DNA of 59,374 nt, counting the filler. It is 5 parts of 5 records of this genome, joined end to end, with 100 filler letters (N's around TTAATTAATTAA, not from the genome) between each part and the next. Parts side by side here need not be neighbours in the genome. Positions count along the whole stretch, not along the records: positions 18,410 to 23,883 come from SRR22947727_3932; 4 more parts are not named here. One strand, given 5' to 3'. Below are positions 4,326 through 24,062 of the stretch, piece after piece (within the stretch, counting starts at the first letter, position 1; each line of letters starts with the position of its first letter). The translations under genes and the position numbers were made by a program. The notes beneath the pieces were generated by a model. It was given only the letters and a program-made list of their open reading frames with translations, had not been told where the DNA came from and made no database searches.

Positions 4326-4331
4326 CTTTCT

Positions 4332-6469: not shown

Positions 6470-6494
6470 GGTTGATTCATCGAACAGACCCTGT

Positions 6495-7975: not shown

Positions 7976-8299
7976 TTTTTATTTACTCAAGACTTTTATG
8001 ATTTTATATATGGACACTAAATCCATATTCTTTGATATGTTCTGCCATTCTCTTTCACGGCCACAAGTTCGAGTTTTGTGAATAAGTAAAATAGTTTTAG
8101 GGTTTGAAATTTCATTCCTTGTGTTAAAAGAAAATACTAAAAGCATTAATGTGTGTGCAAATGATTATAAGTAGGCATTTTTTTCATATATTTAGCTAAC
8201 AAGCTCAATGATTTTTTCCAATACTTAATCCTAAATATTCATTTATATTTTAACAACTTACAATTTTAAATTACTTATTTAGGTAGGATAAATTTTTGA

Positions 8300-8328
8300 T
8301 TTACAAAAATAAAAAAAAGGCGTAAATT
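8300..8328 (+). promoter_or_regulatory. Sigma70-like promoter for the GcvT-family gene
   Basis: TTTACA-N17-TAAATT. Confidence 0.45.
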
Positions 8329-8393
8329 TATTACAAATACTTCTTATTATATATAAAAAGAAGATATAAGTTATAAAGCACGGGAGAGCAAAT

Positions 8394-9698: not shown

Positions 9699-9708
9699 TA
9701 ATCGTTTT

Positions 9709-9742
9709 TAAAGAATTGGGTCTACCAAGGCTCAGTTCTTTA
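9709..9742 (+). terminator. Stem-loop, probable intrinsic terminator
   Basis: TAAAGAATTGGGTC-TACCAA-GGCTCAGTTCTTTA inverted repeat with G-U pairs, just after the stop codon. Confidence 0.6.
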
Positions 9743-9797
9743 TATTAATCTTAATAATATGTTTCATTTTAATATTCTGCTATGGCAGAATAAATTT

Positions 9798-9872
9798 ATG
9801 AAAATATTAATTCCAATCCTCATCTTAGTCTTCTTATATTCTTGCAATATTCCGTTAGTTCCTTTTATCTAA
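9798..9872 (+). CDS. 24-aa lipoprotein-like microprotein
   Basis: MKILIPILILVFLYSCNIPLVPFI: basic N-terminus, hydrophobic core and lipobox-like LYSC. Confidence 0.5.
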   Translation: MKILIPILILVFLYSCNIPLVPFI

Positions 9873-9886
9873 TTATGTAGAACCCA

Positions 9887-10996: not shown

Positions 10997-11879
10997 GCTT
11001 AGCTTTGAATTGATCAAGTATTTCTTCTTCAATAAGATGTCGCATATTCCTAATAATAACTAAATCACTTTTTGGTATAAGTTGGTGCATATATCGTGAA
11101 TTTTCAGCTGACAATACAGGATCTTGTTCCCCATGAATGATTAAAGTTTTTGCCTGAATACTTTTAATTTTTTTAATTCTATTTTTTGATGAAAGTATCG
11201 CCATTAGCTGACGAGCATAACCAAAACCATCTTTCATATCCTTAATTCTATTGAAATTATTAATGGTATCTTCTTTAAATTTAGGCGTATCAATTTCCTT
11301 ACCTTCCATCCCTATTAACCCAACCCATTTTAATTCTCTTTCATACACCTCATCCATAGTGGGATTAGTACTTTTAGATCTGCTTACCATCATATCTCGA
11401 ACCTCTTTTGAGGCTCCATTGTGGGGGCCTGGTACAGAAGCAGTAGAAGCAATTAAAGTATATGTTTTGACTCTTTGTGGATATTTTGCGCATATTATTT
11501 GACTAATCATTCCTCCCATGGACGTGCCTAGAATATGAGCTTCATCAATATTAAGATGATTAAGAAGATTTATTCCATCTCGAGCCATATCATTAAGACT
11601 ATATTCAGGTTTTATTGGGAAACGAAAAAAATATCTTAAATATCCTAAGGTTATAGAGGGCTTATAAAAAAATCTTGAAGATAATCCTGAATCTCTATTA
11701 TCAAATGTTATAGGCCTGAGACCGTTTTTGATAAGAAATTTAATAAGATGTTCAGGCCAGTGTACTAATTGAGCGCCTAATCCATGAACTAAAAGAATAG
11801 GGGTTGCCTCTTCTGGCCCATAGTCCCTATAAAAAATTTTGACTCCATTATTTTCTGAATACCCTTCTTTATAACTCAT
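10974..11879 (-). CDS. Alpha/beta hydrolase
   Basis: LLVHGLGAQ, FDNRDSGLS, GTSMGG nucleophile elbow, IHGEQDP. Start taken at MSYKEG. Confidence 0.9.
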   Translation of the reverse strand: MSYKEGYSENNGVKIFYRDYGPEEATPILLVHGLGAQLVHWPEHLIKFLIKNGLRPITFDNRDSGLSSRFFYKPSITLGYLRYFFRFPIKPEYSLNDMARDGINLLNHLNIDEAHILGTSMGGMISQIICAKYPQRVKTYTLIASTASVPGPHNGASKEVRDMMVSRSKSTNPTMDEVYERELKWVGLIGMEGKEIDTPKFKEDTINNFNRIKDMKDGFGYARQLMAILSSKNRIKKIKSIQAKTLIIHGEQDPVLSAENSRYMHQLIPKSDLVIIRNMRHLIEEEILDQFKAKLKHHLLS

Positions 11880-11965
11880 AAGCTTAGTCTTACATATTTT
11901 AGAAATGCAATACACTGCTTTTTCATATACATTAGATCTTAAATAATAAATACTCTATTTTTTCT

Positions 11966-13336
11966 ATGTTTCAGTTTATAAATTTAATACATTTTATTAA
12001 AGCAAATAAAATAAGAGTAGCTTATGGCATTGGTGATTATGCTATCTGTCTTTATTGGAGTGGAGTTAGCTTATATCTTCTTTATTTTTATACAGATGTT
12101 ATAGGAATTTCACCACTGATGGCAGGTTGGATTTATGCTTTAGGTATAGCTTGGGATGCAGTAACAGATCCTTTTATGGGTTATATGGCTGAAAGAACTA
12201 GAAGTAAAATGGGAAGTTATAGGCCATATATCTATTACGGATCAATACCTTTAGCATTATCTTTTGTTTTACTTTTATGGATGCCACCATTTGAAGGAAT
12301 AATTTTATTTATATTTTTACTGGTAGTAAATTTATTTCATAGAACTTGTTTTACTATTGTAAGTGTTCCTTATTCTTCATTAACTGCAAGAATAACAGAT
12401 GATAGTGATGAGAGAACAAAGCTAACCACTGCAAGGATGCTTGCAGCATCTTTTGGAACATTTTCGATCTCAGCATTAGCATTTCCAATTGTTTTATTAT
12501 TTGGTGGTGGTGAAGAGTCCTTGGGCTTTATTTACCTTGGTCTTATAGCTGGTATTGCAGCAATTATAATACTTGGAATTACTGTATATTTTGTTCAAGA
12601 AAGGCCATTTGAATTTACTAAAGAAGAATTACCAAGTTTTTCCAAAGTCTTAAAATCAGTATCAAGCAATTACCCATTCTGGATAGTTTTTTCTGCAATT
12701 TTAATCTTGATATCCACATACTTGATGTTTAATAATAATTTAATTTATTTTTCTAAATATGCTTTGGGATTCCATGAATACCAAGGTTTAATTCTGGGGG
12801 TTATTAGTGGAAGCACTTTATTAGCAATTCCCTTGTGGGCATATCTAGCAATTAAATTGGGAAAAAAAAATACTTGGATGTTATCTATGACATCTTTATT
12901 TATTGGATTTTCTATTTTTTATTTATATCCAATTTCTGAACTTAGGGAATTGCTATATATTTTAAGCTTTATTGGTTTTGGCAATGGTGCAACTGGGGTT
13001 CTGTTTTGGTCAATGTTGCCGGATACCATTGAATATGGAGAATGGAAGACAGGTATTAGAACAGAATCGTCTCTTTATGGCTTTATGACGTTTGCTCAAA
13101 AAGGCGCTATAGCATTTGCTGCAGTTATATTAGGAATAATATTAACCAATATAGGCTTTGAACCAAATCAGGATCAAACATCAGAAACCTTAGTTTCTTT
13201 AAAAGCCTTGATGTCATTAATTCCTCTTATAGGTGTGTTGATTAGTTTAGCTCTTGTATATTTTTATCCAATTGACAGAAACTTCCATCAAAAATTAATA
13301 GAAGATATAGAAAGTAGAAAGATTAAAAATGCCTAA
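11966..13336 (+). CDS. MFS glycoside-pentoside-hexuronide:cation symporter
   Basis: YFYTDVIG, WDAVTDPFMG..RSKMGSYRPY, MLPDTIEYGEWKTGIR. Confidence 0.92.
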   Translation: MFQFINLIHFIKANKIRVAYGIGDYAICLYWSGVSLYLLYFYTDVIGISPLMAGWIYALGIAWDAVTDPFMGYMAERTRSKMGSYRPYIYYGSIPLALSFVLLLWMPPFEGIILFIFLLVVNLFHRTCFTIVSVPYSSLTARITDDSDERTKLTTARMLAASFGTFSISALAFPIVLLFGGGEESLGFIYLGLIAGIAAIIILGITVYFVQERPFEFTKEELPSFSKVLKSVSSNYPFWIVFSAILILISTYLMFNNNLIYFSKYALGFHEYQGLILGVISGSTLLAIPLWAYLAIKLGKKNTWMLSMTSLFIGFSIFYLYPISELRELLYILSFIGFGNGATGVLFWSMLPDTIEYGEWKTGIRTESSLYGFMTFAQKGAIAFAAVILGIILTNIGFEPNQDQTSETLVSLKALMSLIPLIGVLISLALVYFYPIDRNFHQKLIEDIESRKIKNA

Positions 13337-15332
13337 AATTAAATGGGGAATTATTGGAACTGGCTCTATAGCAAATGCGTTTGCTCATTCAATTAAGTAC
13401 TGTGATCACTCTGAATTAGTTTCAGTCTTTGGAAGAAATAAAGACACCACGGATGAATTCTCAAAGAAATTTAGTATAGACACGCACCTTGATATTGAAT
13501 CATTATTGTTATCAAGTGAAATCAATGCTGTTTATATTGCTACTCCTCATAACTCTCATTATGAATATATTTTTCAAGCTATAAAAAATAAGAAGCATAT
13601 TCTTTGTGAAAAGCCTATAACAATGAATCATATTGAAAGTATGGTTTTATTTGGTCTTGCTAAAGATGCTGAAGTTTTTTTGATGGAAGCTTATATGTAC
13701 AGAACCCACCCTCAAACGAAAAATATTCTTAATAGCATCGAGATACTTAGAAGATCAGAAGAAAAAATATCTATTAATTGCTCATTTGGTTTTAAGGCTG
13801 AAATACCAGAGGACCATAGATTAAGAAATCCTATGATGGGGGGAGGAGCCATTTTAGATGTAGGGTGTTATCCATTATCTATGACTAAGCTATTAGTAGG
13901 TCATATCCTAGACAAACCATATGCTGATCCTAGAAGTATTAAAGCATCAGGAGAGTTAGATATAACAGGTGTTGATTTAAATTCTTCAGCGCATATTATT
14001 TTTACTGATAACATTCAGGCCAATATTTCATGCGCCATAAATGAAGAGTATGAAAATAACTTAGAGATTATCAGTGGTGACTTTAAATTAGAGGTTAGCC
14101 AGCCATGGCATTGCGGTCAATTTCAAGAAGGCCTATCTTCTATAAAAGTTTATAACAAAAATAATCTTATTGAAGAAGTTGCATTTAAAGATGATGTGGG
14201 GCTTTTTACAAGAGAAATTGACCATGCATCAAAATGTATATTAGATGGTAACCTTGAATCAGAGCTAATCTCCCACAATGACTCTCAAAGCATTATGTTA
14301 TGGCTAGACAAATGGAGACAGGAGATAGGAGTAGTTTGTCCATACGAGTCAAAAGATATCTCGCCTATGGTTAAATCAAATTTTTCATCAATACAGAAAA
14401 GGAGCTTAAAAAGCATTTCAGTAGATGGTATTGATAAAAAATTTTCAAAACTTGCTCTTGGCTGTGACAACCAAACTTCAGATATTCATGCTTATGCTAT
14501 GTTTGATTATTTTTACGGAGCTGGTGGAAGAATTTTCGATACTGCCTATATTTATAATAATGGTTTGGGTGATAAGTATTTGGGTGATTGGATTAATTCA
14601 AGAAATCTTCAGAGTGATGTTGTTATTATTGGAAAGGGTGCCCACACTCCAGACTGTAAACCTGAGTTTATAAAGCCACAAATAGAAGAATCATTAGATC
14701 GATTACAACTCTCAAAAATAGATATATATTGTCTTCATAGGGATAATGCTGACATTCCAGTGTCAGAATTTATTGATGCTCTCAATGAGATAAAAACCGA
14801 GGGCTTGATAAATACTATCGGCGCATCTAATTGGGAATTAGATCGTTTCTCAAGTGCCAGGGATTATGCATTAAAGAATAATAAAGAACCTTTTTCTGTT
14901 TTAAGCAATAATTTTAGCCTTGCGCAGATGATTGAACCAGTTTGGCCTGGATGCGTTGCAGTTAGTAATGAGTTTTTAGACTACATCAACAAGAATGAAA
15001 TTAAATTATTTCCTTGGTCAAGTACAGCAAGAGGTTTTTTCATTAGAAAAAAAGAAATCGTAACCAAAGAACATTTCTCCAATCCCTCATTAGAGGAAGA
15101 AAAAAGAGTCTGGCATAGCAGAAAGAATCTAAAAAGAAGAGATATTTGTTTTGAAATTGCAGAAAAGAAAAATGTAGAGCCTATAGAGATAGCTATTGCT
15201 TATGTGGTTCATAGATCACCATTAATATTTCCATTAATAGGCCCAAGAACAGTAAATGAATTAAATAGCTCCATCTTTGGTTCACAAATAAATCTTTCAG
15301 AAGAAGACCTAAATAGACTATCTATAAATTGA
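13329..15332 (+). CDS. Gfo/Idh/MocA oxidoreductase fused to an aldo/keto reductase
   Basis: N-terminal WGIIGTGSIA, ATPH, CEKP, GGGAILDVGCY. C-terminal FDTAYIY, KGAH, IDIYCLHRD, GASNW, IGPR. Confidence 0.9.
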   Translation: MPKIKWGIIGTGSIANAFAHSIKYCDHSELVSVFGRNKDTTDEFSKKFSIDTHLDIESLLLSSEINAVYIATPHNSHYEYIFQAIKNKKHILCEKPITMNHIESMVLFGLAKDAEVFLMEAYMYRTHPQTKNILNSIEILRRSEEKISINCSFGFKAEIPEDHRLRNPMMGGGAILDVGCYPLSMTKLLVGHILDKPYADPRSIKASGELDITGVDLNSSAHIIFTDNIQANISCAINEEYENNLEIISGDFKLEVSQPWHCGQFQEGLSSIKVYNKNNLIEEVAFKDDVGLFTREIDHASKCILDGNLESELISHNDSQSIMLWLDKWRQEIGVVCPYESKDISPMVKSNFSSIQKRSLKSISVDGIDKKFSKLALGCDNQTSDIHAYAMFDYFYGAGGRIFDTAYIYNNGLGDKYLGDWINSRNLQSDVVIIGKGAHTPDCKPEFIKPQIEESLDRLQLSKIDIYCLHRDNADIPVSEFIDALNEIKTEGLINTIGASNWELDRFSSARDYALKNNKEPFSVLSNNFSLAQMIEPVWPGCVAVSNEFLDYINKNEIKLFPWSSTARGFFIRKKEIVTKEHFSNPSLEEEKRVWHSRKNLKRRDICFEIAEKKNVEPIEIAIAYVVHRSPLIFPLIGPRTVNELNSSIFGSQINLSEEDLNRLSIN

Positions 15333-17745
15333 TATGATCTTTTAGCCTAATATCATTTGAAGACGACCCAATCAGAATTTCAAATTTACCTTTTTTGACC
15401 TGCCATTGACGCGTTTCAATATCCCATGTTGAAAAATTTCTTGAATCCAAGCATATTTCTATTTTTTTTGTTTCATCTGAATTTATAAAAGTTTTATCAA
15501 AACCTTGTAATTTTTTTATTGGCTCCTCATTACCACGGTCTGCAAAAGAGATATAACATTGAGATATTTCATATCCCGAATGATTCCCAGTATTTGTAAT
15601 ATCTAACGAAATTGTGAAATTATTTTCAGAGCTTTTGCTGATATGAAGATTTGAATATTTAAAATCAGTATAAGATAAGCCATGACCAAAATGGAACAAG
15701 GGCTCTATTTTATTTTTGTCATACCACTTATAGCCAACAAAAAGCTTTTCATCATAATTCATTTGTAAATTTTCTCCTGGATAGGATGCATACGCAGGAG
15801 TATCTTCAATATATTTTGGAAAAGTTGTTGGTAATTTGCCAGAGGGATTAACGAGGCCTGTTAAGATTTCAAAAAGAGCATTGCCGTATTCCTGTCCCGC
15901 ATACCAGGATTGAATAATTGACTTAGCTTTGTTTACCCATGGCATATTTACTGGAGAACCAGTATTTAGAACAACAACCGCATTAGGATTAATATCTAAA
16001 ACTTGTTCAATAAGTCTATTTTGATCTCCTGGTAAATTAAATTCATTTCTATCATTGCCCTCTGTTTCCCAATCCGAATTAGTTCCTACTAAGAGAATAA
16101 CTTCATCGACCTCTCTAGCAATATTTAGCGCTTCTTCAAGCAAATTAATTTTATCGGGTGGCTGACATCCAATATAAATAGCTGGAAAATTGCCTTCAAA
16201 TCTATAATGTATTTCTATCTGATATGAATTGCCTTTTTCTAAGCATGAAGTACCTCGTTTGGATGATGTGCCATGAGCAAAAAAAGCATCACCGGACAGG
16301 GGATTGCTCCAATTATCAATAATCTGTTTGTTATCGATTAGTAACTTGCTTTTTCCAATTGCAAAGATTTCAAAGTCATGCTCTCCAGATACATCAGGAG
16401 TATAAGTACATGAAAATTTAACTAGAATATCAGGGCTCTCTTGTTCTGCAATTACATCTTTAGCAAAACCTTCAAATATCCAAAATTTACTCCCTGTTAG
16501 GACTTTGCTAGAAATAAAATTATTACCCCCCTCTGAAATATCATAGTATTCGACTAAAAATCCATTTTCTTCTGTAAGTGTTTTATTTATTTCAGGAAGA
16601 TAGCGATATGTATGACAACCTTTTGCAGTTTTAATAATAGTTTTCTCACTGAAATTATTTTGAAACGAGCTTACAGGATGAGATTCGTAATAAGGAACAA
16701 GAGTAGCACTACCTCCCCCAATAATTTGTGCTTTTTCAGCATTAGGACCAATTACACCAATTGATTTTATATCTCTCCTCATTGGTAATATGCCATCATT
16801 TTTTAAGAGCACCATACCTTCTTGAGCAGCATCTTTAAGAATTTTTCTTTGTAATTTTGAGTCATTCTCACTTTCTTGTTTACGAATTGGATTTTCGAAC
16901 CTTTTACAGAAATCTATGACATTTAAAATTCTTTTAACTTTGTCATTAATGATTGTCACTGATACAGTTTTGTTATTTACAGCACTTATTAAATTTGCTC
17001 CCCAAGATTTAGCTGGACCCGGCATTTCCAGATCAAGTCCTCCATTAGCATTTTCAATAGTTTCTCTTGCAGCACCCCAATCACTAACTACATATCCATC
17101 AAAACCCCATTCGTCTTTTAAAACATCAATTAGAAGATTCTCATTAGAGCTGCAGTAAATATTATTAAGTTTGTTGTATGCACTCATAACAACCTTTGCA
17201 TTAGCTTCCTTGATAGCCATCTCAAATGGCAAAAGATAAACCTCTCTTAAAGTTTTCTCATCGATATTTGAACTTACAGTGTATCTTTCAAACTCGGTAT
17301 CATTCCCAACAAAATGTTTAAGGCATGCCGCAATATTCTTTGATTGGACTCCCTTTACATACTCAATTGCAATTTTTCCAGTTAAGAATGGATCCTCAGA
17401 AAAACATTCAAAATGTCTTCCTCCAAGAGGATGCCTATGAATATTTATTGTGGGACCCAATAGAACATCCACTCCTTTAATCTCTGCTTCAGCAGCTAAC
17501 TCTTCTCCTAATAAATTAATAAGATTCAAATTCCATGTAGATCCTATTGATATAGCGCATGGAAAACAGGCGGATGATTTTCCTGAGGTGCCATCTCCTC
17601 TAACGCCATTAGGACCATCAGACATTTTTATATTTGGTACTCCTAGCCTATGAATTTTGCTAGTTTGCCAAGCATCAAATCCACTTAATAAAAGTACTTT
17701 TTCTTCAAGAGTTAAATCTTCTATCAATTGATTTATGTTTGGCAT
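15322..17745 (-). CDS. GH3 beta-glucosidase with PA14-like insert and Fn3-like C-terminus
   Basis: SDGPNGVRG, GGRHFECFSEDP, KHF, VVSDW nucleophile, ETEGNDR, FGHGLSYT. Confidence 0.95.
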   Translation of the reverse strand: MPNINQLIEDLTLEEKVLLLSGFDAWQTSKIHRLGVPNIKMSDGPNGVRGDGTSGKSSACFPCAISIGSTWNLNLINLLGEELAAEAEIKGVDVLLGPTINIHRHPLGGRHFECFSEDPFLTGKIAIEYVKGVQSKNIAACLKHFVGNDTEFERYTVSSNIDEKTLREVYLLPFEMAIKEANAKVVMSAYNKLNNIYCSSNENLLIDVLKDEWGFDGYVVSDWGAARETIENANGGLDLEMPGPAKSWGANLISAVNNKTVSVTIINDKVKRILNVIDFCKRFENPIRKQESENDSKLQRKILKDAAQEGMVLLKNDGILPMRRDIKSIGVIGPNAEKAQIIGGGSATLVPYYESHPVSSFQNNFSEKTIIKTAKGCHTYRYLPEINKTLTEENGFLVEYYDISEGGNNFISSKVLTGSKFWIFEGFAKDVIAEQESPDILVKFSCTYTPDVSGEHDFEIFAIGKSKLLIDNKQIIDNWSNPLSGDAFFAHGTSSKRGTSCLEKGNSYQIEIHYRFEGNFPAIYIGCQPPDKINLLEEALNIAREVDEVILLVGTNSDWETEGNDRNEFNLPGDQNRLIEQVLDINPNAVVVLNTGSPVNMPWVNKAKSIIQSWYAGQEYGNALFEILTGLVNPSGKLPTTFPKYIEDTPAYASYPGENLQMNYDEKLFVGYKWYDKNKIEPLFHFGHGLSYTDFKYSNLHISKSSENNFTISLDITNTGNHSGYEISQCYISFADRGNEEPIKKLQGFDKTFINSDETKKIEICLDSRNFSTWDIETRQWQVKKGKFEILIGSSSNDIRLKDHINL

Positions 17746-17817
17746 GGTGGAATATTAAATGTTTAATATTAAATCCTCAATACACCTTTTCATTAAAATG
17801 CTGTTAGTATTGTCTTC

Positions 17818-18075
17818 ATGATAGAGAGAATAAAAAAATCAGTGATGCTTTTCAATGCTCCAATACAAAGAGTTTATGAGGCTAATAGAGGCACCATTAT
17901 TAGAACTATCATTTATACAATTGGTCACTTTATAATTGCCGCCTCATGCGTAATGTATTTTACTGGCGCAGACTTCTCTGCAGCTATAACAGATGCTATC
18001 GTTGAGCCACTTTTAAACAGTGTTTGGTATTTTGTTTTAGATAAATATTGGGCTAGCAAATACCCAAACAAATAA
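17818..18075 (+). CDS. Small membrane protein, DUF2061-like
   Basis: RTIIYTIGHFIIA..GA..A..VEP....WYF.LDK.W two-helix pattern. Confidence 0.65.
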   Translation: MIERIKKSVMLFNAPIQRVYEANRGTIIRTIIYTIGHFIIAASCVMYFTGADFSAAITDAIVEPLLNSVWYFVLDKYWASKYPNK

Positions 18076-18087
18076 AGAAAAAAATTC

Positions 18088-18116
18088 TTTACAAACATAT
18101 CATTACTGGTTAAATA
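18088..18116 (+). promoter_or_regulatory. Sigma70-like promoter upstream of the riboswitch
   Basis: TTTACA-N17-TAAATA; predicted start about 18122, immediately before the aptamer. Confidence 0.45.
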
Positions 18117-18122
18117 TATACA

Positions 18123-18173
18123 TATCGTGATTTGATCCTATTGCCGCGATGCAAAAAAAGAAGCTAAAACGGA
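18123..18173 (+). ncRNA. SAM-II riboswitch aptamer
   Basis: P1 UAUCG/CGAUG, conserved UGAUUU, UUGC pairing with GC(U)AA of GCUAAAA, and UCC/GGA; lies upstream of a homocysteine methyltransferase. Confidence 0.8.
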
Positions 18174-18240
18174 AGCAGCTCCCAGGGTTTAACTACGATT
18201 AAATTAATTAATAAGATATTCAAGTATTAAGGAGAGGATC

Positions 18241-18309
18241 ATGAAAAGAGGGTTAATAGAAAGATTGAATGAAGGCCCAGTAATTTGTGCTGAAGGTTTT
18301 TTATTTGAA
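18241..18309 (+). CDS. bhmT: Betaine-homocysteine S-methyltransferase, N-terminal fragment (contig end)
   Basis: MKRGLIERLNEGPVICAEGFLFE matches the BHMT N-terminus; AGGAGAGG RBS. Confidence 0.7.
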
Positions 18310-18409
18310 NNNNNNNNNNNNNNNNNNNNNNNNNNNNNNNNNNNNNNNNNNNNTTAATTAATTAANNNNNNNNNNNNNNNNNNNNNNNNNNNNNNNNNNN
18401 NNNNNNNNN
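18310..18409. other. Artificial contig spacer
   Basis: N44-TTAATTAATTAA-N44. Confidence 0.99.
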
Positions 18410-18625
18410 TTCTTTTAAAATAGGATAAGTACAAGGTTTATAAGCTCCCGCTCTGAAGGCATTTATACCTAATAATTTTATTTCTTTAGCAATATCTACT
18501 ATTTCAGGACCTTCAACAGAACACGGACCTGCTATTTTAGTATACTTCCATTCAAAGTTAATACTTTTATCTATTGAGATATTTAATTTACCCTGATTTT
18601 TTAATGATTTAATGTACTCGTTCAT
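18410..18625 (-). CDS. DAHP synthase I-beta/KDO8P synthase superfamily protein, N-terminal part (contig end)
   Basis: IAGPCSVE and FRAGAYKPCT motifs. Confidence 0.8.
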
Positions 18626-19169
18626 TTATATTCTTTTCAGCATTTAAAAGATCCTGTTCACTATGTATATTAGTGCAATTATCTAATATACTACCCACTC
18701 TTCTGCTCATGTAGCCAGATTTAACATGCTCAGCTTTAGTAATTCTAATAGATCCATTTCTAGAACCATCAGGATTAGTTGTAAATAAATCATCATATTT
18801 ATTTTCTACTGCGTATGTTAACATTTCATCCAAAGGTATAGTTCTATCCGGATGATCAGGTTGTATACCTACAACATGGGTAAAATCACTATTACTTATA
18901 CTATTAAATATTTTTACATATACATCGGCTACTTCACGTTCACCCATATAATCTTTAGTTCTTCCTACCACATCCACACCATGAGATAAAGCTATTGTTG
19001 CTGTATCAGTATCTTCTGTAGTTACAATAATAGAAGTAACTAATTTAGATTTTTTAGCGTAATCAATAGAATGTTCTAGTAGGGTTTTCCCCGCTATAAT
19101 TCTTTTATTTTTACCTACTAATCTTTTTGAATCCCCCTTAGCTGGGATGATTGCTAGTGCTTTTATCAT
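18609..19169 (-). CDS. CMP-ulosonate (NeuA/KdsB-type) cytidylyltransferase
   Basis: AIIPAKGDSKRLVGKNKRIIAGKTLL, IVTTED and NIHSEQDL. Confidence 0.85.
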   Translation of the reverse strand: MIKALAIIPAKGDSKRLVGKNKRIIAGKTLLEHSIDYAKKSKLVTSIIVTTEDTDTATIALSHGVDVVGRTKDYMGEREVADVYVKIFNSISNSDFTHVVGIQPDHPDRTIPLDEMLTYAVENKYDDLFTTNPDGSRNGSIRITKAEHVKSGYMSRRVGSILDNCTNIHSEQDLLNAEKNINERVH

Positions 19170-20092
19170 AATTTATTAATTGACCACTTATAAGCTTTTG
19201 TTTGTCCTTCTATTGTCATTCCACCTGTATGAGGAGTACATATAATATTTTGCCCTCTTCTCATTGCATCTATTATAGGTGAATTAATCCAATCATTGAA
19301 TTCATCTTCTATAACATCAGTTCCATACCCACTCAAATTTCCATTTTCAAGAGCATCTACCACATCCTTTTCATTTACAATCTCCCCACGGGACGTGTTA
19401 ATAAGGTACGAATCATTTTTTACTAGTCCAAGTAATTTTTTATTAATCATATATTTAGTTTCTTCATTTACATGAACATGTAAAGAAACTACATCACATT
19501 TTTTAAATATCTCTTCTAATGATGTTTGCTGAATATCAACATATGGATCAAAAATAAAAGTATTAGCTTCAAAAGCTTTACAGAATCTATCCATCATCTT
19601 TCCCAATCTACCATACCCTATTATACCAATATTTAGATCTTTAATTTGGCGACCCATAAATTTAGTATAATCCCATCCACCACTCTTAACATGAATATTG
19701 CTATCAGGTATCTTTCTTAATAAAGAAAGCATTAAACCAAATGCTAATTCAGACGTAGATGGTAGTTGGTTAATTAATTCATAATCATTTTTGTGACATT
19801 GTATTTTTATATTATGTTTTTTACAATAATCTAAATCAATATGATTTAAACCCGTTGAGCATGAATTAATTAAATTAACTTTAGTATTATTGAGTAAATC
19901 TCCATCTATTTTATAAGATTGTTGATTAGGATTACAAATAATAGTATTAATGTTTTCTTCCATTAGAAGACTTCTAACTTGATCTTTATTAGACGTTTCT
20001 AAGTAAAATACAATACCCTTACTATTTATTAACTCTTTAACACCTTTTAAATGTGATATAGGTGTTATGACTGTTATTCTATGATTACCCAT
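19166..20092 (-). CDS. D-isomer-specific 2-hydroxyacid dehydrogenase (SerA-like)
   Basis: STGLNHID, GIIGYGRLG, SLHVH, INTSRGEIV, TPHTGG. Confidence 0.92.
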   Translation of the reverse strand: MGNHRITVITPISHLKGVKELINSKGIVFYLETSNKDQVRSLLMEENINTIICNPNQQSYKIDGDLLNNTKVNLINSCSTGLNHIDLDYCKKHNIKIQCHKNDYELINQLPSTSELAFGLMLSLLRKIPDSNIHVKSGGWDYTKFMGRQIKDLNIGIIGYGRLGKMMDRFCKAFEANTFIFDPYVDIQQTSLEEIFKKCDVVSLHVHVNEETKYMINKKLLGLVKNDSYLINTSRGEIVNEKDVVDALENGNLSGYGTDVIEDEFNDWINSPIIDAMRRGQNIICTPHTGGMTIEGQTKAYKWSINKL

Positions 20093-20814
20093 TGTGGATT
20101 TTTATGTAAAATTTCTATTCTATTATTTTCCTCTTTACCCTCTTCATATAAATCATATAGTTCTTTTATGGGAAGATTAATATCAATATATTCTTTTTGT
20201 ACAAATATTAAATTCCTTTGAGTTCTAAAAACACATGAATATCCCTTTATCTTACCTAATTTAATTAAAGCCCCCATACTAGCCCCCGTATACCCACATT
20301 TAGTATCTCTCCATGTCCAGTGATTAGGGTCATAATGCATAACTTTATTTTCTTCTAAGGATAATTGAGGGTTAAACTCTATTACCATTATTTTAGGTTT
20401 ATATTCTAATTTTTCCCAAATCCAATAATCTTGTCCATCCACATCTATTACTACTATATCTAAATTTTCAGGAACATTATATTTTTTAAAGATTTCATTA
20501 ACGTTATCTGCATTTATAGCCTCCATTTTAATCATAGGCTGAAATTCTTTACTGCTTTGCTTAAATTTAAGTTCACTAACTTCAAAAAATAAACATTCGC
20601 AATTATGTTTTTTATAAAAAAAATCAATATTAGAGGTACCCGCCCCTCCATTATTAATTTGCCCAGCACCAAATTCTACTGCATACCTAGGTGTTATTTT
20701 AAGGTCATTAAAAATAAAATTAATTATTCTATTTTCCCCATCTTGGGATTTATCCTTAAAGCCCTTTCCTTTTAGTCCAGTTTTATATGCTTCTTTTAAA
20801 TCACGTAGTTTCAT
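20074..20814 (-). CDS. FkbM-like SAM-dependent methyltransferase
   Basis: SQDGE, AVEFGAG, IDVDGQDYWIW, PKIMVIEFN, GASMGALIKLGKIKGY. Confidence 0.7.
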   Translation of the reverse strand: MKLRDLKEAYKTGLKGKGFKDKSQDGENRIINFIFNDLKITPRYAVEFGAGQINNGGAGTSNIDFFYKKHNCECLFFEVSELKFKQSSKEFQPMIKMEAINADNVNEIFKKYNVPENLDIVVIDVDGQDYWIWEKLEYKPKIMVIEFNPQLSLEENKVMHYDPNHWTWRDTKCGYTGASMGALIKLGKIKGYSCVFRTQRNLIFVQKEYIDINLPIKELYDLYEEGKEENNRIEILHKNPQWVIIE

Positions 20815-21356
20815 ATTACTCGTATTTTATTTTTTGTTACTAATTTTTCAATATATTCTTTTTCTTTTTTCCATTCATGTTTGCCAGGTACGTCTGATGC
20901 TCCTTTATTACCCCAGTAATGGTTAGATTTACCAAAATCAAAACCAGCTAAGGTAACATTATCATACAAGTCTAAAAAATATCTTATAGCTAAAAAACCC
21001 GTAGTGGGTTTTGAATCAAATACTCTTTTAAACTGTTTGTAGGTAACTTTAATATCTACAAGTTTAGATATTTGGTTAATTTTACCGTTATCTTTAGCAG
21101 TAGTAAAAACTAATGCTTCAGTTAAACCATTAGTAAATGTTTTAACTTTTTTTAAATTTTTAACTAAATAATCTCTGCCATCTGTAGTTAGGGCATAATT
21201 TAAAACCCAATGAGTGCATTTAGTACCCAAATCTTGCTCAAAATCTACTATCCTAAATCTATTAAACCTTACTACTACATCAAAATTATCTATAGTTAAA
21301 CCATGCTTTTTACCCAGAATATTTGAACTATTACCAATTAAAATACACTTAGCCAT
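20811..21356 (-). CDS. GT29 (sialyltransferase-like) glycosyltransferase
   Basis: Sialylmotif L (CILIGNS..G..IDNFDVVVRFN..DLGTKCT), S (PTTGFLAI..VTLAGFD), III (HYW) and VS (HEWKKE). Confidence 0.8.
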   Translation of the reverse strand: MAKCILIGNSSNILGKKHGLTIDNFDVVVRFNRFRIVDFEQDLGTKCTHWVLNYALTTDGRDYLVKNLKKVKTFTNGLTEALVFTTAKDNGKINQISKLVDIKVTYKQFKRVFDSKPTTGFLAIRYFLDLYDNVTLAGFDFGKSNHYWGNKGASDVPGKHEWKKEKEYIEKLVTKNKIRVI

Positions 21357-21969
21357 GATTATTACTTATGACAATAAAATATCTAACTCCCCTATAACTT
21401 TGCCCTTTATCTTCTATACCATCATTCTTTAAAATATCTACTATATTATATTTTTTAGATATGAAAGATTTATATTCATCTAAAGTTGCCCCAAAAGGAT
21501 CAGCTGCCTGGCTTTTATTATCACAGATAGGACTGTACTCAATTACACATACACCATTTTTACTTAAACATGACATCCAAATGTCTAAACATTCTTCGGG
21601 CTTACATGAATGATCAAATGAATTAGTGTATATAATATCTGTGTTACCTACCCATTCGGGTTTAGTATCATGAAAATCCCACTGAATAGTATGAGGATAA
21701 TCTTTAGCAGTTGGAGATATTTCAGTACCTATAACTTCGGGTTTTAAATTTAGGGCATCATAATAATCTATAAAGTACTGTTGTTCTAAACCCCTTCTTG
21801 TCCCATGACATAATATTAAATTGGGTTCAATATTAAGTTCTTCATAAAGATAATTTATTAGGGAACCTAAAGAATTAGGATCTACATAAGAATTATTAAT
21901 TTTTCTTTTATTAGCCTCTATTTGATTTTCTATATAATTGTTATAATCCTTATATTTAAATAGTTTCAT
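21349..21969 (-). CDS. Putative SAM-dependent methyltransferase
   Basis: LCHGTRRGLE, GTEIS, WDFH, DIIYTNSFDHS..P..WMSCL..GVCVIE class I MTase-like pattern. Confidence 0.6.
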   Translation of the reverse strand: MKLFKYKDYNNYIENQIEANKRKINNSYVDPNSLGSLINYLYEELNIEPNLILCHGTRRGLEQQYFIDYYDALNLKPEVIGTEISPTAKDYPHTIQWDFHDTKPEWVGNTDIIYTNSFDHSCKPEECLDIWMSCLSKNGVCVIEYSPICDNKSQAADPFGATLDEYKSFISKKYNIVDILKNDGIEDKGQSYRGVRYFIVISNNHG

Positions 21970-22667
21970 TTTATTTTCTTTTTGTGTGGGCCAGTTTGAT
22001 AAAAGTATTTATTATTTCTACTATCTCCCTGCAAGTAAGTAAATTTGAAGTCATTTTTCCAAGCTATGTAATTAAAGCTTAATTGATCTCTTTTAGAATT
22101 ATATTTTATTTCCTGCCACCAGTCCTCTAAAACCTTCCTAACTTTTTCACTATTGTGGTTTCTTAATAATATAGAATTTTGAGTTAAACCATTATTTTTA
22201 GGATAACCTTCATCAAGATATCTTTGAACCTGATTGTTCATAGTCACGGGGTTATCCTTATAATTTCCATTATTATTGTGGCCTAATTGAATTATAGCAT
22301 TATATTCTCCATAAATGCAATCCCTAGGGTCTAACATATTTTGATTATGGTCAAATACTAAATAATCATTTAAAATATGTCCCTGTGCTGATGAAATTAT
22401 TTCTCTAACATCAGAGATTATTTTTATATTACCATCTATCCAAATGGAAAAATCATAGTCTTGAAGATACCTATGGGGTAAAATTTTATATTTTTTAGCA
22501 TTTCTATTACTATCAGAATATATGGGAGTGGATTTTACTATGTTCCAAAGATTGGATGTAATATCCATATCTGTAAAACAAATATAATCAACCCCATCCA
22601 TTTTGAATTGATCATCCATTAAATCATCATACCCCCCAAATATAGAAGTATAAACTGCTATTTTCAT
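21966..22667 (-). CDS. DUF616/TOD1-MUCI70-like glycosyltransferase
   Basis: VYTSIFGGYD, YICFTD, KILPH, SIWIDG, RDQLSFNY. Confidence 0.8.
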   Translation of the reverse strand: MKIAVYTSIFGGYDDLMDDQFKMDGVDYICFTDMDITSNLWNIVKSTPIYSDSNRNAKKYKILPHRYLQDYDFSIWIDGNIKIISDVREIISSAQGHILNDYLVFDHNQNMLDPRDCIYGEYNAIIQLGHNNNGNYKDNPVTMNNQVQRYLDEGYPKNNGLTQNSILLRNHNSEKVRKVLEDWWQEIKYNSKRDQLSFNYIAWKNDFKFTYLQGDSRNNKYFYQTGPHKKKIK

Positions 22668-23509
22668 CTTAAATATATTTCTGATTTAATAAAATTGGAA
22701 CCTAATTTACCTCTAGGTACGGTATAAGTGGGGGTATAATTAGCTATAGTATCATTAACCCCCGTTTGATTTCCTATGTTGTATTTAGCCCTGGATTTAA
22801 TGTACATTTGAATTCTAATATCTATATGTCTTAAATCTAAAGCTTTTTTAAATGTAAATTCTACATTGGGACTATTTAACCAATAAAACATAGGTAAATC
22901 AAATTCATCTATTTTACTTTGAATTAATTCCTTGCCCTCATTTTCATATCGATTAGAAATTAAAAGAGTCCCAAATTCACCATCACAATGCTCAGATATA
23001 ATCTTATCTCCTAATCTAATTTCTTCATCAGTCCAGTATATTTCCGGTTCTATATTATCAAAAGAATCAAATTGCCAGAATCTAAGAATCTGCTCTAATA
23101 AAGGAGTATCTTCATCTTGTTTATATATTCTATAATGGTCATTAAAAATATCACCTTCAAAATTATCTATATAACCATCTACATAAGGGTTATTTAAAAA
23201 GATAGTTTTAACAACATTAAAGGGGTTATCCCAAGATGACCAATTAGATTTAAATTCACCAAACATATTTTGCAATAACATAGGGGATGGAAGAAGAACA
23301 GTACAATTAGGATACTTTTGCTTAAGTATTCTAGGAAATGAAGATATAATACCCCAATCTCCCACTCCAAAACAAGTTCTTAAAATAATAAATTTTTGCT
23401 CTTCTAAATAATCATCAGGTATGTAAGATGGATCTTCAATGGGAAACCCCAACTGTTCTACTTCACCTACAGGGTGGGTTTGATTATCATATGTTCTCCA
23501 AAATATCAT
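22664..23509 (-). CDS. Hypothetical protein, GT9 (heptosyltransferase)-like
   Basis: IILRTCFGVGDWGIISSFPRILKQKYPN..NNPYVD and IGNQTG resemble GT9 motifs. Confidence 0.5.
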   Translation of the reverse strand: MIFWRTYDNQTHPVGEVEQLGFPIEDPSYIPDDYLEEQKFIILRTCFGVGDWGIISSFPRILKQKYPNCTVLLPSPMLLQNMFGEFKSNWSSWDNPFNVVKTIFLNNPYVDGYIDNFEGDIFNDHYRIYKQDEDTPLLEQILRFWQFDSFDNIEPEIYWTDEEIRLGDKIISEHCDGEFGTLLISNRYENEGKELIQSKIDEFDLPMFYWLNSPNVEFTFKKALDLRHIDIRIQMYIKSRAKYNIGNQTGVNDTIANYTPTYTVPRGKLGSNFIKSEIYLR

Positions 23510-23883
23510 AGCTTATCGTATAAATCATTTTGTTTTTCTTGTCTTTGGATATCCTTAGGGTGATGTAAAAATAACATACCATATTCGGCACCAGATGGGA
23601 TTGGACTAAATGTTTTAAAACCATCTAGCTTCTCATGTACTTTATTTACCCATTTTATTGACGGGTCATTTTTGTATATCCTCCACTGGTAATCAGGCCA
23701 ATTTATCCTATTCATTTCATCTATGCTCCAACCCCATTTATTGATATGTTCTTCAGTTAGCCCTTCTACTGTATTTTCCCTAGGAACTAAAATTACATCT
23801 ACATCTTGTTTGATTATACTATGTAAAGAATCCATTAAATCCTGAGCTGGTAGTTCATCAGCATCAATTTGGAAAATATAATC
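23506..23883 (-). CDS. GT2-like glycosyltransferase, C-terminal part (5' truncated)
   Basis: The frame extends to the contig end as DYIFQIDADE (DxD motif), followed by PRENTV, PDYQWRIY and KVHE. Confidence 0.75.
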   Translation of the reverse strand, partial: DYIFQIDADELPAQDLMDSLHSIIKQDVDVILVPRENTVEGLTEEHINKWGWSIDEMNRINWPDYQWRIYKNDPSIKWVNKVHEKLDGFKTFSPIPSGAEYGMLFLHHPKDIQRQEKQNDLYDKL

Positions 23884-23983
23884 NNNNNNNNNNNNNNNNN
23901 NNNNNNNNNNNNNNNNNNNNNNNNNNNTTAATTAATTAANNNNNNNNNNNNNNNNNNNNNNNNNNNNNNNNNNNNNNNNNNNN
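23884..23983. other. Artificial contig spacer
   Basis: N44-TTAATTAATTAA-N44. Confidence 0.99.
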
Positions 23984-23985: not shown

Positions 23986-24062
23986 TGGCGCACCGGGGAG
24001 GATTCGAACCCCCGACCCCTTGATTCGTAGTCAAGTACTCTATCCAGCTGAGCTACCGGTGC
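23986..24062 (-). tRNA. tRNA-Arg(ACG)
   Basis: GCACCGGTAGCTCAGCTGGATAGAGTACTTGACTACGAATCAAGGGGTCGGGGGTTCGAATCCTCCCCGGTGCGCCA, 77-nt cloverleaf. Confidence 0.97.

Follow-up and report, generated by a model that had tools for sequence, protein, structure and literature searches.

The contig at positions 18410-23883 of the window (the whole stretch of 59,374 nucleotides that was analysed) carries, as the last three of its nine genes, those for a DAHP-synthase-like enzyme, a 2-hydroxyacid dehydrogenase and a cytidylyltransferase, which probably make an activated acidic sugar. No description of this three-enzyme route to such a sugar was found in the literature. The fuller explanation has about an even chance of being correct, taken jointly in all its parts: the contig would come from a low-GC marine bacterium, or from a large phage of one, and hold part of an operon for surface glycans, the last three genes would form a self-contained cassette for a CMP-ulosonate, and the GT29 enzyme of the operon would be the likeliest transferase. 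The link between the cassette and GT29 is weaker than the cassette pathway itself. The initial annotation had read the contig as an operon for making and transferring a possibly non-sialic ulosonic acid; the observation on which it was built is confirmed and its overall interpretation is partly supported.

Genes of the contig

The stretch is a single complete contig of 5474 bp with 28% GC. Artificial joints of the form N44-TTAATTAATTAA-N44 abut it on both sides (18310-18409 and 23884-23983, no strand), thus the adjoining sequence in the window represents unrelated contigs and not genomic context. The contig is filled by nine minus-strand ORFs, g1 to g9, and all the eight junctions overlap, by 4, 4, 4, 8, 4, 19, 4 and 17 bp when each ORF is taken from its first ATG. 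This agrees with the earlier description of nine same-strand genes with overlapping starts and stops in an operon truncated at both ends, g1 and g9 being the ORFs cut by the contig ends. Chance ORFs are excluded, since the ORFs tested all have many conserved relatives. No phage hallmark gene was found on the contig. The nine family assignments made initially were all recovered, g4 and g6 as leads only and without an HMM match. Judged from sequence, the family evidence is strong for the GT29, DUF616/TOD1-MUCI70, 2-hydroxyacid dehydrogenase, cytidylyltransferase and DAHP-synthase-like proteins, and the calls of g2 as GT9-like and g1 as GT2 are based on a fold or a homologue.

The g1 gene (23506-23883, minus strand) encodes a small GT2-type glycosyltransferase of which the contig end leaves the last 125 aa and removes the N-terminus. 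The fragment by itself gave no significant Pfam match. Its homologue in Flavobacterium phage immuto, a 207-aa protein annotated as GT2 (72% nucleotide and 59% amino acid identity over 127 aa), matches PF00535 at 5.5e-7, and g1 matches phrog_37334 at 2.6e-4. For the 281-aa product of g2 (22664-23509, minus strand) nothing was found in Pfam, NCBIfam or PHROG profile searches. Its AF2 model (pLDDT 82.5) points to a GT9-like glycosyltransferase of GT-B fold: the top Foldseek match in the PDB is the GT9 structure 3tov (E 4.5e-6), WaaF and WaaC are also matched, and TM is 0.53-0.56. It has 881 relatives at E<=1e-3, with 65-96% identity among the 120 listed, and some relatives carry a SAM methyltransferase fusion. 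The 233-aa product of g3 (21966-22667, minus strand) is a glycosyltransferase-like protein that matches PF04765 (DUF616, currently named TOD1_MUCI70) with 54.9 bits against a cut-off of 21.4 (E 1.1e-14) and phrog_26101, 'glycosyltransferase', at 4.6e-19.

Language-model neighbours suggest a putative class I SAM methyltransferase of 206 aa for g4 (21349-21969, minus strand) and a putative FkbM-type methyltransferase of 246 aa for g6 (20074-20814, minus strand); HMM family searches (Pfam, NCBIfam, PHROG) were empty for both and the two identities are taken as leads only. The atlas neighbours of g4 score 0.95-0.99, with a class I SAM methyltransferase cluster at 0.98; Methyltransf_11 clusters are among them, as are several of mainly viral membership, and tblastn of phage records gave no match. 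In the case of g6, a cluster in which 28% of the members have FkbM-type PF05050 scored 0.97, the third-ranked neighbour is a named FkbM domain protein, and a hypothetical protein of cyanophage S-SM2 is 32% identical. The six genes g1 to g6, with the small GT29 enzyme encoded by g5 among them, would assemble and probably methylate an oligosaccharide.

The DAHP-synthase-like enzyme

The g9 gene (18410-18625, minus strand), cut by the contig end, retains only the first 72 residues of its product, an Arg-less PEP aldolase (KPCTYP) that resembles type-Ibeta DAHP synthases and has a full length of 269 aa. The fragment alone scores 18.8 bits, under the Pfam cut-off of 25.5. These 72 aa share 99% identity with the beginning of P0051 (269 aa), and the properties of the synthase were taken from that protein; the identity covers just the part in the window. 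Relatives of P0051 match PF00793 at 1e-48 to 1e-55. Type Ibeta DAHP synthases (P. furiosus 1zco, T. maritima 1rzm) are the best sequence match, with 6e-53 for the P. furiosus enzyme and 1.5e-20 for KDO8PS. The synthase shares with them the Cys/His/Glu/Asp metal site, the PEP-site motifs and the form of a catalytic barrel without added domains (about 265 aa), and in the family alignment the four metal-ligand positions (C35, H216, E242 and D253), the PEP-site motifs GTRN and LLKRG, and KPCT are invariant.

It differs from them in that KPCT(Y/F)P stands in place of KPRTSP, with a 6-residue insertion after it, and CLRGVVGMPSYRH in place of CERGIR, with a second insertion. KPCT[YF]P is present in 144 of 147 close relatives in place of KPR(T/S), which we take to be the E4P-phosphate motif; the roles of the KANRS motif and of the metal ligands are likewise assumed from the literature. 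When an unbiased HMMER search was made of 1.84 billion representatives, KPR[TS] occurred in 129 of the best 150 matches and KPCT in only 5 (four found by regular expression and P0321 by eye). Six synthases from related loci, eight close-family members and P0318 make up a 15-row clade (SH-aLRT 100), separate from the type Ibeta enzymes and located in glycan rather than aromatic amino-acid loci. By these sequence criteria the synthase belongs to a clade of its own, made up of metal-dependent enzymes resembling type-Ibeta DAHP synthases. The members score 235-261 bits with DAHPS models and 87-104 bits with KDO8PS models (KDO8PS cut-offs 242-314), and the match to PF03102 (NeuB-type) is marginal only.

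It is very improbable that g9 serves the shikimate pathway as an ordinary DAHP synthase and lies by chance beside glycan genes. The top PDB matches are DAHP synthases and the source records call the relatives '3-deoxy-7-phosphoheptulonate synthase', but the presumed phosphate-binding Arg is gone from nearly all the relatives, none of the four full-length members reaches any curated NCBIfam DAHPS or KDO8PS cut-off, the linkage with a cytidylyltransferase and a dehydrogenase is kept across phyla, and no aro genes were seen nearby. The low scores and the loss of KPR(T/S) bear out the initial view that this is not a plain shikimate enzyme. As the first step of the preferred CMP-ulosonate pathway, an Ibeta-fold synthase altered from KPRT to KPCT, with two loop insertions and without the arginine that would hold the E4P phosphate, would join PEP to another aldehyde, one that probably lacks the usual kind of phosphorylation, and yield a 3-deoxy-2-ulosonic acid. 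The gene families, the motif change, the clade and the linkage of the cassette genes are observations, and from them we infer the substrate, the product, the order of steps, the role of the dehydrogenase and the pairing with GT29. The heptulosonate, Dha- or Kdo-like sugar and its O-methylation suggested in the initial annotation stay candidate assignments.

Dehydrogenase, cytidylyltransferase and their linkage with the synthase

The first gene of the cassette, g7 (19166-20092, minus strand), encodes a 308-aa D-isomer-specific 2-hydroxyacid dehydrogenase (PF02826, 3e-45; PF00389, 9e-7). It matches PDB 1wwk at 6e-35, the R (NTSRG), E (DVIEDE) and H (TPHTGG) positions being aligned, and its orthologues in loci L004, L008 and L003 are 60%, 42% and 66% identical, the last being an edge fragment. 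The substrates of D-2-hydroxyacid dehydrogenases are 2-oxo or 2-hydroxy acids, and an open-chain ulosonate is a 2-oxo acid. The enzyme could act, as a second step, on the 2-hydroxy/2-oxo-acid group of the precursor or of the product, a role for which we know of no precedent. The g8 gene (18609-19169, minus strand) encodes a compact 186-aa cytidylyltransferase resembling CMP-ulosonate synthetases, with 56 bits for PF02348 (cut-off 22.6, E 6e-15). In Foldseek its AF2 model (pLDDT 85.4) finds the CMP-Neu5Ac synthetase 6ifd first (E 2e-13, TM 0.84), and synthetases for CMP-Neu5Ac, CMP-Pse, CMP-Kdn or CMP-Kdo account for all of the best 40 PDB fold neighbours. The g8 protein falls far short of the curated equivalog thresholds (PseF 50.6 against 205.7; KdsB 33 against 155), and its orthologues in L003, L004 and L008 are 73%, 69% and 43% identical. 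This NeuA/KdsB-like enzyme would couple the acid to CMP in the third step.

The search for related loci used the patterns AGAYKPCT and RWAPD[LI]MM and gave six; motif conservation among them is therefore partly circular. In five of the six, from different phyla, a CTP_transf_3 domain adjoins the synthase or lies one gene off; in L007 the domain forms part of a GT2 fusion protein about 650 bp downstream. The dehydrogenase also adjoins the synthase in five, and in L005 and L006 it is fused with the cytidylyltransferase into a protein of 570-572 aa, which implies consecutive steps. Wza/Wzz and an ABC exporter surround the cassette in L008 (gene order GT2-dehydrogenase-cytidylyltransferase-synthase), and Wzm/Wzt and rml genes in L006; from their gene content, the related loci are surface-polysaccharide loci. 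L005 carries NeuB with its own cytidylyltransferase fusion beside the cassette; the cassette therefore forms a pathway of its own rather than serving NeuB. The linkage, the fusions, the glycan setting and the NeuB of L005 together make a dedicated CMP-activated ulosonate pathway, without NeuB or KdsA, a well supported prediction. The conserved linkage that the initial annotation had treated as decisive was found for the three cassette genes in glycan loci of several phyla; GT29 was found in none of the six (tblastn and Pfam).

Two other uses of the cassette have to be weighed. The dehydrogenase could reduce the 2-keto group and the cytidylyltransferase activate a 2-hydroxy acid or non-glycosyl moiety, giving a non-sugar acidic decoration and no glycosyl donor. 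The known substrates of the dehydrogenase family and the fusion of the two enzymes would fit such a scheme, but the activation carried out by the best 40 fold neighbours of g8 is in every case at the anomeric hydroxyl of an ulosonic acid and we know of no precedent for this chemistry, so that it is quite improbable. Improbable to a lesser degree is a non-orthologous route to a known sugar nucleotide, likeliest CMP-Kdo or CMP-3-deoxy-heptulosonate from DAHP, with nothing chemically new. The fold and the PEP/metal site of the synthase are those of DAHPS and KDO8PS, g8 resembles KdsB and NeuA, and RCKT1, a GT29 enzyme of plant RG-II, probably transfers Kdo (PMC12168206). Against it, the synthase has neither KPR(T/S) nor KANRS and is much nearer to DAHPS than to KDO8PS, in the PDB matches and in the models (235-261 against 87-95 bits); the Kdo pathway has no place for a dehydrogenase that is conserved and in some loci fused; and no SIS isomerase (PF01380, KdsD-like) or HAD-type phosphatase was present among Pfam matches in the scanned ORFs of the related loci (E<=1e-4), although a phage Kdo block has KdsD.

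The GT29 enzyme and comparison with known systems

The g5 gene (20811-21356, minus strand) encodes a minimal GT29 (sialyltransferase-family) enzyme of 181 aa without a membrane anchor, which matches PF00777 with 81.1 bits (cut-off 23, E 1.2e-22) and aligns over residues 3-180 with ST3Gal-I (PDB 2wml, 1.1e-11). The sialylmotif positions L, S, III and VS are invariant or nearly so among 20 family members. A motif scan of 185,579 GTDB species genomes did not find this subfamily. Known GT29 members use CMP-ulosonate donors, and no other family on the contig is known to have such donors, which makes GT29 the likeliest candidate to transfer the cassette product; we know of no bacterial or phage GT29 assayed so far. 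The longest contig listed is 50,094 bp both for P0034, a GT29 relative, and for P0187, a synthase relative, a hint only.

The initial claim that GT29 transfers the cassette sugar is not borne out by the related loci or the genome scan; what recurs beside the cassette is a small GT2. It directly adjoins the cassette in four of the six loci, L005 has it close by on the other strand, and in L007 it is joined to a cytidylyltransferase domain; the cognate transferase may therefore be other than GT29. It is possible, though on the unlikely side, that such a glycosyltransferase moves the CMP-ulosonate and that GT29 uses CMP-Kdo, Neu5Ac, Leg or Pse made elsewhere, in a mosaic glycan island. No counterparts of g2-g6 were found by tblastn in any of the six loci, and against the L008 order these genes resemble an insert between GT2 and cassette; GT29 genes of huge phages go with ordinary NeuB or KdsA pathways. 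On the other hand GT2 enzymes are known for the use of NDP- or polyprenyl-phosphate-linked sugars and not of CMP-ulosonates, g1 had no tblastn match to the cassette-associated GT2s, and eight overlapping junctions argue for a single co-translated unit.

The proposed pathway shares its logic with the NeuB-NeuA-sialyltransferase route to CMP-Neu5Ac, Leg and Pse, i.e., PEP and aldose condensation, CMP activation by a CTP_transf_3 enzyme and CMP-ulosonate-dependent transfer, and NeuA-type enzymes are the best fold matches of g8. It differs in that the synthase is of the DAHP_synth_1 family and a 2-hydroxyacid dehydrogenase is added, without NeuC or an aminotransferase; a true NeuB pathway coexists next to the cassette in L005. 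With the KdsD-KdsA-KdsC-KdsB route to CMP-Kdo it shares the synthase superfamily and the match of g8 to KdsB models over the first ~105 residues, whereas KANRS and the isomerase and phosphatase families are missing as described above. Like ST3Gal-I, RCKT1 and bacterial GT29-like proteins, g5 has the four sialylmotifs, but it begins right at motif L, without anchor or stem, and sits in an operon of overlapping genes. Bacterial GT29-like genes, mainly of marine alpha-proteobacteria, have already been published (Petit et al. 2018, PMC5811610), and the substrate of plant GT29 enzymes is given as Kdo, perhaps also Dha, rather than sialic acid (PMC12168206). Blocks in two huge phages combine mini-GT29 genes (206-249 aa) with ulosonate synthases, methyltransferases and GT2: LR756508 has four around a NeuB, and LR756500 has one located 7 kb from KdsD-KdsB-KdsA, the KdsA being of KKANRS type. 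The g5 protein shares only 26-31% identity with their GT29 proteins, and the phage blocks use NeuB or canonical KdsA, whereas the contig has the KPCT synthase. LPS-type glycosyltransferases are also numerous in the 147-180 kb genomes of pelagimyophages (PMC7029224), whose host-recognition regions are glycosyltransferase-rich.

The KPCT synthase family

The nine minus-strand ORFs of the contig at 18410-23883, numbered here g1 to g9 in the order of transcription, occupy its whole length and overlap by 4 to 19 bp at all eight junctions. All nine gene-family calls of the initial annotation were recovered, with the strength of the evidence varying from gene to gene, and its description of an operon truncated at both ends holds, as the contig ends cut the first and the last genes. 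The last gene, g9 (minus strand), is a fragment of 72 aa which matches the N-terminal part of P0051, a relative of 269 aa, at 99% identity, and the full-length properties of the synthase are taken from relatives such as P0051. This 269-aa family gave 181 matches, those listed having 72–99% identity over the g9 fragment, and the mean column identity of 16 full-length members is 82%. Full-length relatives match PF00793 at 4.5e-50 to 2.8e-55, and the g9 fragment alone stays under the cut-off of this model (18.8 vs 25.5). Among solved structures the synthase is closest to the DAHP synthases of type Ibeta (P. furiosus 1zco, 6e-53), and KDO8P synthases are far weaker PDB matches (1.5e-20). C35, H216, E242 and D253, which we take to be the metal ligands, are invariant and align with the P. 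furiosus enzyme; GTRN and LLKRG are also invariant.

The family differs from DAHP synthase in two loops. The KPRTSP loop of DAHP synthase, whose KPR(S/T) presumably holds the phosphate of erythrose 4-phosphate, is replaced by KPCT(Y/F)P, with six inserted residues after it, and CERGIR is replaced by CLRGVVGMPSYRH with a second insertion. It was found that g9 itself carries KPCT and lacks KPR(S/T). KPCT[YF]P is present in 144 of the 147 close relatives, and no motif match was obtained in the other 3. A HMMER search of 1.84 billion representatives gave 5620 matches at E<=1e-3, and among the best 150 of these, in which the motifs were read, KPR[TS] occurs in 129 and KPCT in 5 (4 by regular expression, P0321 by eye). 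None of four full-length members reached the curated NCBIfam cut-offs for DAHP synthase or KDO8P synthase; the four score 233–261 vs 267.75 for the DAHP synthase model TIGR01361 and 263–284 vs 335 for NF006421. The KANRS motif of KdsA is absent from the family and TIGR01362 scores 87–95 vs a cut-off of 314. The NeuB model PF03102 gives marginal matches (1e-5 to 1e-8), secondary to PF00793, and no SAF domain was found in the 269-aa family. As a separate observation, P0321, a distant KPCT-type relative of 345 aa, keeps the canonical CERGI loop and its C-terminal extension has a weak SAF-domain match (E 0.0023), a NeuB-like architecture.

A quick maximum-likelihood tree was built from 65 rows, namely 8 of the 16 aligned family members, 6 proteins from related loci and 51 representatives (all 16 of at least 240 aa without KPR[TS] and 35 random canonical ones). 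The family groups with the locus proteins and P0318 in a clade of 15 rows (SH-aLRT 100), and a branch with support of 82 separates all KPCT rows (17), along with 4 more Arg-less rows, from the rest. The canonical enzymes of this tree are interspersed with nine additional rows that are Arg-less or unmatched, and the arginine loss is therefore not unique to the KPCT clade. KPCT synthases are a third branch of the PEP aldolases, in which the phosphate-binding arginine of DAHP synthase is lost. Relatives of the KPCT synthase are abundant in marine metagenomes.

Linked dehydrogenase and cytidylyltransferase genes

In the contig the synthase forms a cassette with two further genes of the minus strand. 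The first, g7 (308 aa), encodes a D-2-hydroxyacid dehydrogenase (PF02826 at 3e-45, PF00389 at 9e-7). Its top PDB match is P. horikoshii phosphoglycerate dehydrogenase (1wwk, 6e-35), with which its Arg, Glu and His positions, presumably the catalytic triad, are aligned, and no NCBIfam equivalog cut-off was reached. The second, g8 (186 aa), is a CTP_transf_3 protein (PF02348, 56 bits vs a gathering threshold of 22.6) whose sequence alignment with KdsB, NeuA and PseF is limited to the first ~105 residues. It gave no equivalog match to KdsB, NeuA, PseF or LegF (PseF 50.6 vs 205.7, kdsB 33.1 vs 155.2). The best 40 PDB fold neighbours of the predicted g8 model (pLDDT 85.4) all belong to the synthetases of CMP-Neu5Ac, CMP-Pse, CMP-Kdn or CMP-Kdo, the top match being 6ifd with a TM of 0.84. 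The CMP-Kdo synthetases among these neighbours would suit a cassette that reaches ordinary CMP-Kdo, or a derivative of DAH, by a non-orthologous route, and the missing KdsA motif of the synthase speaks for another product; we regard such a route as improbable.

When 185,579 species genomes were scanned with the synthase alignment, the patterns AGAYKPCT and RWAPD[LI]MM led to six loci, which are therefore pre-selected for these motifs. Four are in single-cell genomes of Bacteroidetes (L004), Pelagibacteraceae (L005), another alphaproteobacterium (L006) and Synechococcus (L008), one is in an Elusimicrobia bin (L007), and one is a 3-kb contig binned as Nitrosopelagicus (L003). L004 has the order dehydrogenase, cytidylyltransferase, synthase and GT2, with identities of 60% to g7, 69% to g8 and 71–77% to the synthase (71% by tblastn with the g9 fragment, 77% for P0051). 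L003 has an edge fragment of the dehydrogenase followed by cytidylyltransferase, a 206-aa protein, synthase and GT2. In L008 the order is GT2, dehydrogenase, cytidylyltransferase, synthase and ABC exporter, on a contig with HisRS, Wzz and Wza, and by its gene content L008 is a cellular polysaccharide locus. A SAR11-type variant in L005 (6213-10846) and L006 (3176-7818) consists of a cytidylyltransferase-dehydrogenase fusion protein of 570–572 aa, a MR_MLE protein (enolase superfamily), a second dehydrogenase and the synthase; GT2 directly follows the synthase in L006 and lies close by on the opposite strand in L005. In L007 a 502-aa GT2 with a weak CTP_transf_3 match (11549-13057, E 3.4e-5) lies ~650 bp downstream of the synthase. 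That the cassette supplies a non-glycosyl acidic decoration appears very unlikely.

Thus in five of the six loci the cytidylyltransferase adjoins the synthase or lies one gene off, with CTP_transf_3 close by in all six, the dehydrogenase is adjacent in 5/6, and the two are fused in 2/6. The third-branch synthase is tied to both partners in surface-glycan loci of cyanobacterial, SAR11-type and Bacteroidetes-labelled single-cell genomes and of further metagenome bins. The initial annotation had made a non-shikimate role depend on conserved linkage, and the linkage of synthase, cytidylyltransferase and dehydrogenase is indeed conserved (5/6 loci). A plain shikimate role is therefore rejected, and it is hardly credible that g9 is such an enzyme, its kinship with DAHP synthases notwithstanding. 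L005 also encodes, a few kb from the cassette, a NeuB which has a cytidylyltransferase-aminotransferase fusion of its own, and the cassette is therefore a separate pathway in this locus. No SIS isomerase or phosphatase family was found among the Pfam matches in the six loci at E<=1e-4.

Some features of individual loci should be mentioned here. The L004 cassette is flanked (855-3418 and 7712-10762) by genes for SAM synthetase, S-adenosylhomocysteine hydrolase and two UDP-glucose dehydrogenases and for a 1016-aa PEP-utilising (PPDK-like) protein, which suggests that SAM, uronic acids and perhaps also PEP are supplied locally. The L006 synthase has KPAT in place of KPCT, and in L007 a ParE toxin gene lies between the synthase and the GT2/CTP_transf_3 fusion.

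The mini-GT29, its neighbours and the origin of the contig

The GT29 gene g5 (181 aa, minus strand) passes the PF00777 gathering threshold (81.1 bits vs 23), and its residues 3–180 align with pig ST3Gal-I across the sialylmotifs L, S, III (HYW) and VS (H-x4-E). These motif positions are invariant or nearly so in 20 family members, and G8, N9, R30, N32, G120, H146, Y147, W148, H160 and E165 are invariant in all 20 sequences. As g5 begins at motif L, it is without membrane anchor or stem. The 181-aa protein is a minimal anchor-free form of the animal sialyltransferase fold and thus convenient for enzymology. In marine metagenomes its family is represented by 50 or more clusters of ~181 aa. A motif scan of 185,579 GTDB species genomes from the GT29 alignment, which is blind to distant GT29s such as those published from marine proteobacteria, gave 5 pattern matches and 0 relatives of g5, and recovery of the full locus via GT29 failed with it. 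Hypervariable glycan islands are often absent from genome bins, which could also account for the empty scan. Bacterial GT29-like genes from marine proteobacteria are already in print (PMC5811610), and plant GT29 enzymes are described as acting on Kdo and possibly Dha (PMC12168206).

Readable GT29 contexts other than the contig come from two uncultured huge phages alone. In the 484-kb phage LR756508.1 four tandem mini-GT29 paralogues of 210–249 aa (8513-13334) lie around NeuB. A GIY-YIG endonuclease is also found among these GT29 genes, with GDP-mannose 4,6-dehydratase, epimerase, GT10 and GT25 close by upstream. In the 462-kb phage LR756500.1 a 206-aa GT29 shares a block on one strand (12900-23335) with KdsD-like (SIS-domain), KdsB-like and KdsA-like genes; the cytidylyltransferase is full-length and the synthase motif is KKANRS. 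A KpsC/S-type Capsule_synth protein, GT2, GT4, two methyltransferases, a pyruvyl transferase and a sulfotransferase are encoded in the same block. Mini-GT29s of prokaryotic style thus occur next to three kinds of ulosonate supply route, which fits the pairing of GT29 with the cassette without proving it. The longest contig is equal for some GT29 and g2 matches (26,358 and 24,724 bp) and for one GT29 and one synthase match (50,094 bp), each being a hint only. On the other side, none of the six cassette loci (0/6) has a GT29, g2, g3, g4 and g6 are likewise without counterpart there, and judged against the gene order of L008, g2 to g6 look like an insert between GT2 and the cassette. It could be possible that the contig is a mosaic island, where the GT29 uses another CMP-sugar and a different glycosyltransferase handles the cassette product, a reading we consider rather unlikely.

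The remaining genes, all on the minus strand, encode three glycosyltransferases and two putative methyltransferases. The contig-cut C-terminal fragment g1 (125 aa) is GT2 by its relative in Flavobacterium phage immuto, a 207-aa GT2 (59% protein, 72% DNA identity) that sits within the glycosylation block of that phage. No HMM match was found for g2 (281 aa) in Pfam (E<=0.1), NCBIfam or PHROGs, Glyco_transf_9 included. The top PDB neighbours of its model (pLDDT 82.5) are GT9 proteins (3tov at E 4.5e-6, TM 0.53–0.56, then WaaF and WaaC) at 10–12% identity, and g2 is therefore a GT-B enzyme with GT9 resemblance in fold alone. Its relatives P0214, P0239 and P0275 (473–476 aa) carry a C-terminal Methyltransf_24 domain (E 1.6e-5 to 9.2e-5), and this fusion to a SAM-methyltransferase domain points to a functional tie of the GT-B enzyme with methylation. 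The product of g3 (233 aa) is a TOD1/MUCI70 protein (PF04765 at 1.1e-14), which we take to be the former DUF616. Neither g4 (206 aa) nor g6 (246 aa) has a HMM match in Pfam or NCBIfam; their language-model neighbours, clusters of class I SAM and FkbM-type methyltransferases respectively, many of them viral, are leads to their function. The PHROGs search of the contig proteins gave family matches for g1, g3 and g7 alone.

The contig may come from a cell or from a phage. The closest relative of g1 belongs to a phage, the atlas clusters nearest to g4 and g6 are mostly viral, g6 has a homologue in cyanophage S-SM2 (32% identity), and for g2 relatives the longest contigs given are 135–178 kb, the size of pelagimyophage genomes; all of these point to a phage. 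Pelagimyophage genomes are rich in LPS-type glycosyltransferases (PMC7029224). Pointing to a cell, the cassette occurs in the clearly cellular loci L008 and L006, no phage hallmark gene is present among the nine ORFs, and the empty GT29 scan could stem from the gaps of genome bins at glycan islands. Against phage records the whole contig matched over g1 alone, g2 and g4 gave no match, g5 matched one huge phage (31%) and g8 gave two weak matches. P0051 found only host-type DAHP synthases (35–41%, in phage-labelled records) and KdsA-like genes there, and these matches do not settle the origin. The BFVD fold search with g2 gave GT-B/GT9-like phage and giant-virus proteins alone, at 8–16% identity, and is uninformative on origin.

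The window is made of contigs chained by artificial linkers (6495-6594, 18310-18409, 23884-23983 and 53750-53849, no strand), each 44 N, TTAATTAATTAA and 44 N, and the stretch 18410-23883 coincides with a single contig of 5474 bp and 28% GC. Flanking window sequence was ruled out as genomic context, the neighbours being other contigs across these linkers. Two of them (1-6494 and 23984-53749) have ~51% GC and bacterial core genes, among them rpoA, secY, yidC, dxr and argB; the two others (32–35% GC) have a DmdA-like gene, a GH3 glycosidase, ispE and a WecA-like gene. The sharp GC contrast, ~51% vs 28–35% in the remaining three among at least five contigs, suggests either that the draft bin mixes two or more organisms or that the genome is unusually heterogeneous. 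The next contig (51% GC) has a minus-strand tRNA-Arg (ACG) at 23986-24062, two bases inside it, and an assembly break at a tRNA is typical beside a variable island. A neighbouring low-GC contig encodes at 8394-9695 a 434-aa aminomethyltransferase-family protein whose top model is DMSP demethylase, with 264 bits vs a cut-off of 410. The genes beside it encode an OYE-type flavoenzyme, an L-2-hydroxyglutarate-oxidase-like protein, a GPH sugar symporter and a GH3 glycosidase.

Candidate pathway and its product

Acidic keto-sugars such as sialic, legionaminic and pseudaminic acids and Kdo shape the recognition of cells and viruses, and to our knowledge all known routes to them start with NeuB or KdsA. 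We give about an even chance to a pathway in which the Arg-less synthase, the dehydrogenase and the cytidylyltransferase make a CMP-sugar, which the GT29 transfers. The synthase would condense PEP with an aldehyde that is not phosphate-held in the usual way, the dehydrogenase would work on a 2-hydroxy- or 2-oxo-acid group of substrate or product, and the compact cytidylyltransferase would form the CMP-sugar. The GT29 may then move the activated sugar onto a glycan made by the other three glycosyltransferases, and this glycan may be methylated by g4 and g6. The identities of substrate and product and the sequence of the steps are our inference. The cassette consists of three soluble enzymes and its product is directly testable; if new, it would be an extra sugar in the ocean cell-surface repertoire and may be a determinant of phage receptors. 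Full-text searches of the literature gave no description of the KPCT synthase clade, the cassette or the g5 GT29 subfamily.

A bolder proposal, which we consider a long shot, is that the KPCT cassette is the first pathway for a 3-deoxy-ulosonic acid that is CMP-activated and either dicarboxylic or non-classical in some other way, with the mini-GT29 as its transferase. It would then be a lead to the biosynthesis of Dha and to its nucleotide form, both given as unknown in plants (PMC12168206). The acid could for instance be a Dha-like 3-deoxy-heptulosaric acid, for which PEP and a non-phosphorylated aldehydo-acid would be the precursors, and the distal carboxyl end would be where the 2-hydroxyacid dehydrogenase works. 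If true, the cassette would be a marine bacterial or phage parallel to the Kdo/Dha/O-methyl-Kdo chemistry of plant RG-II, a chemistry which prasinophyte scales share.
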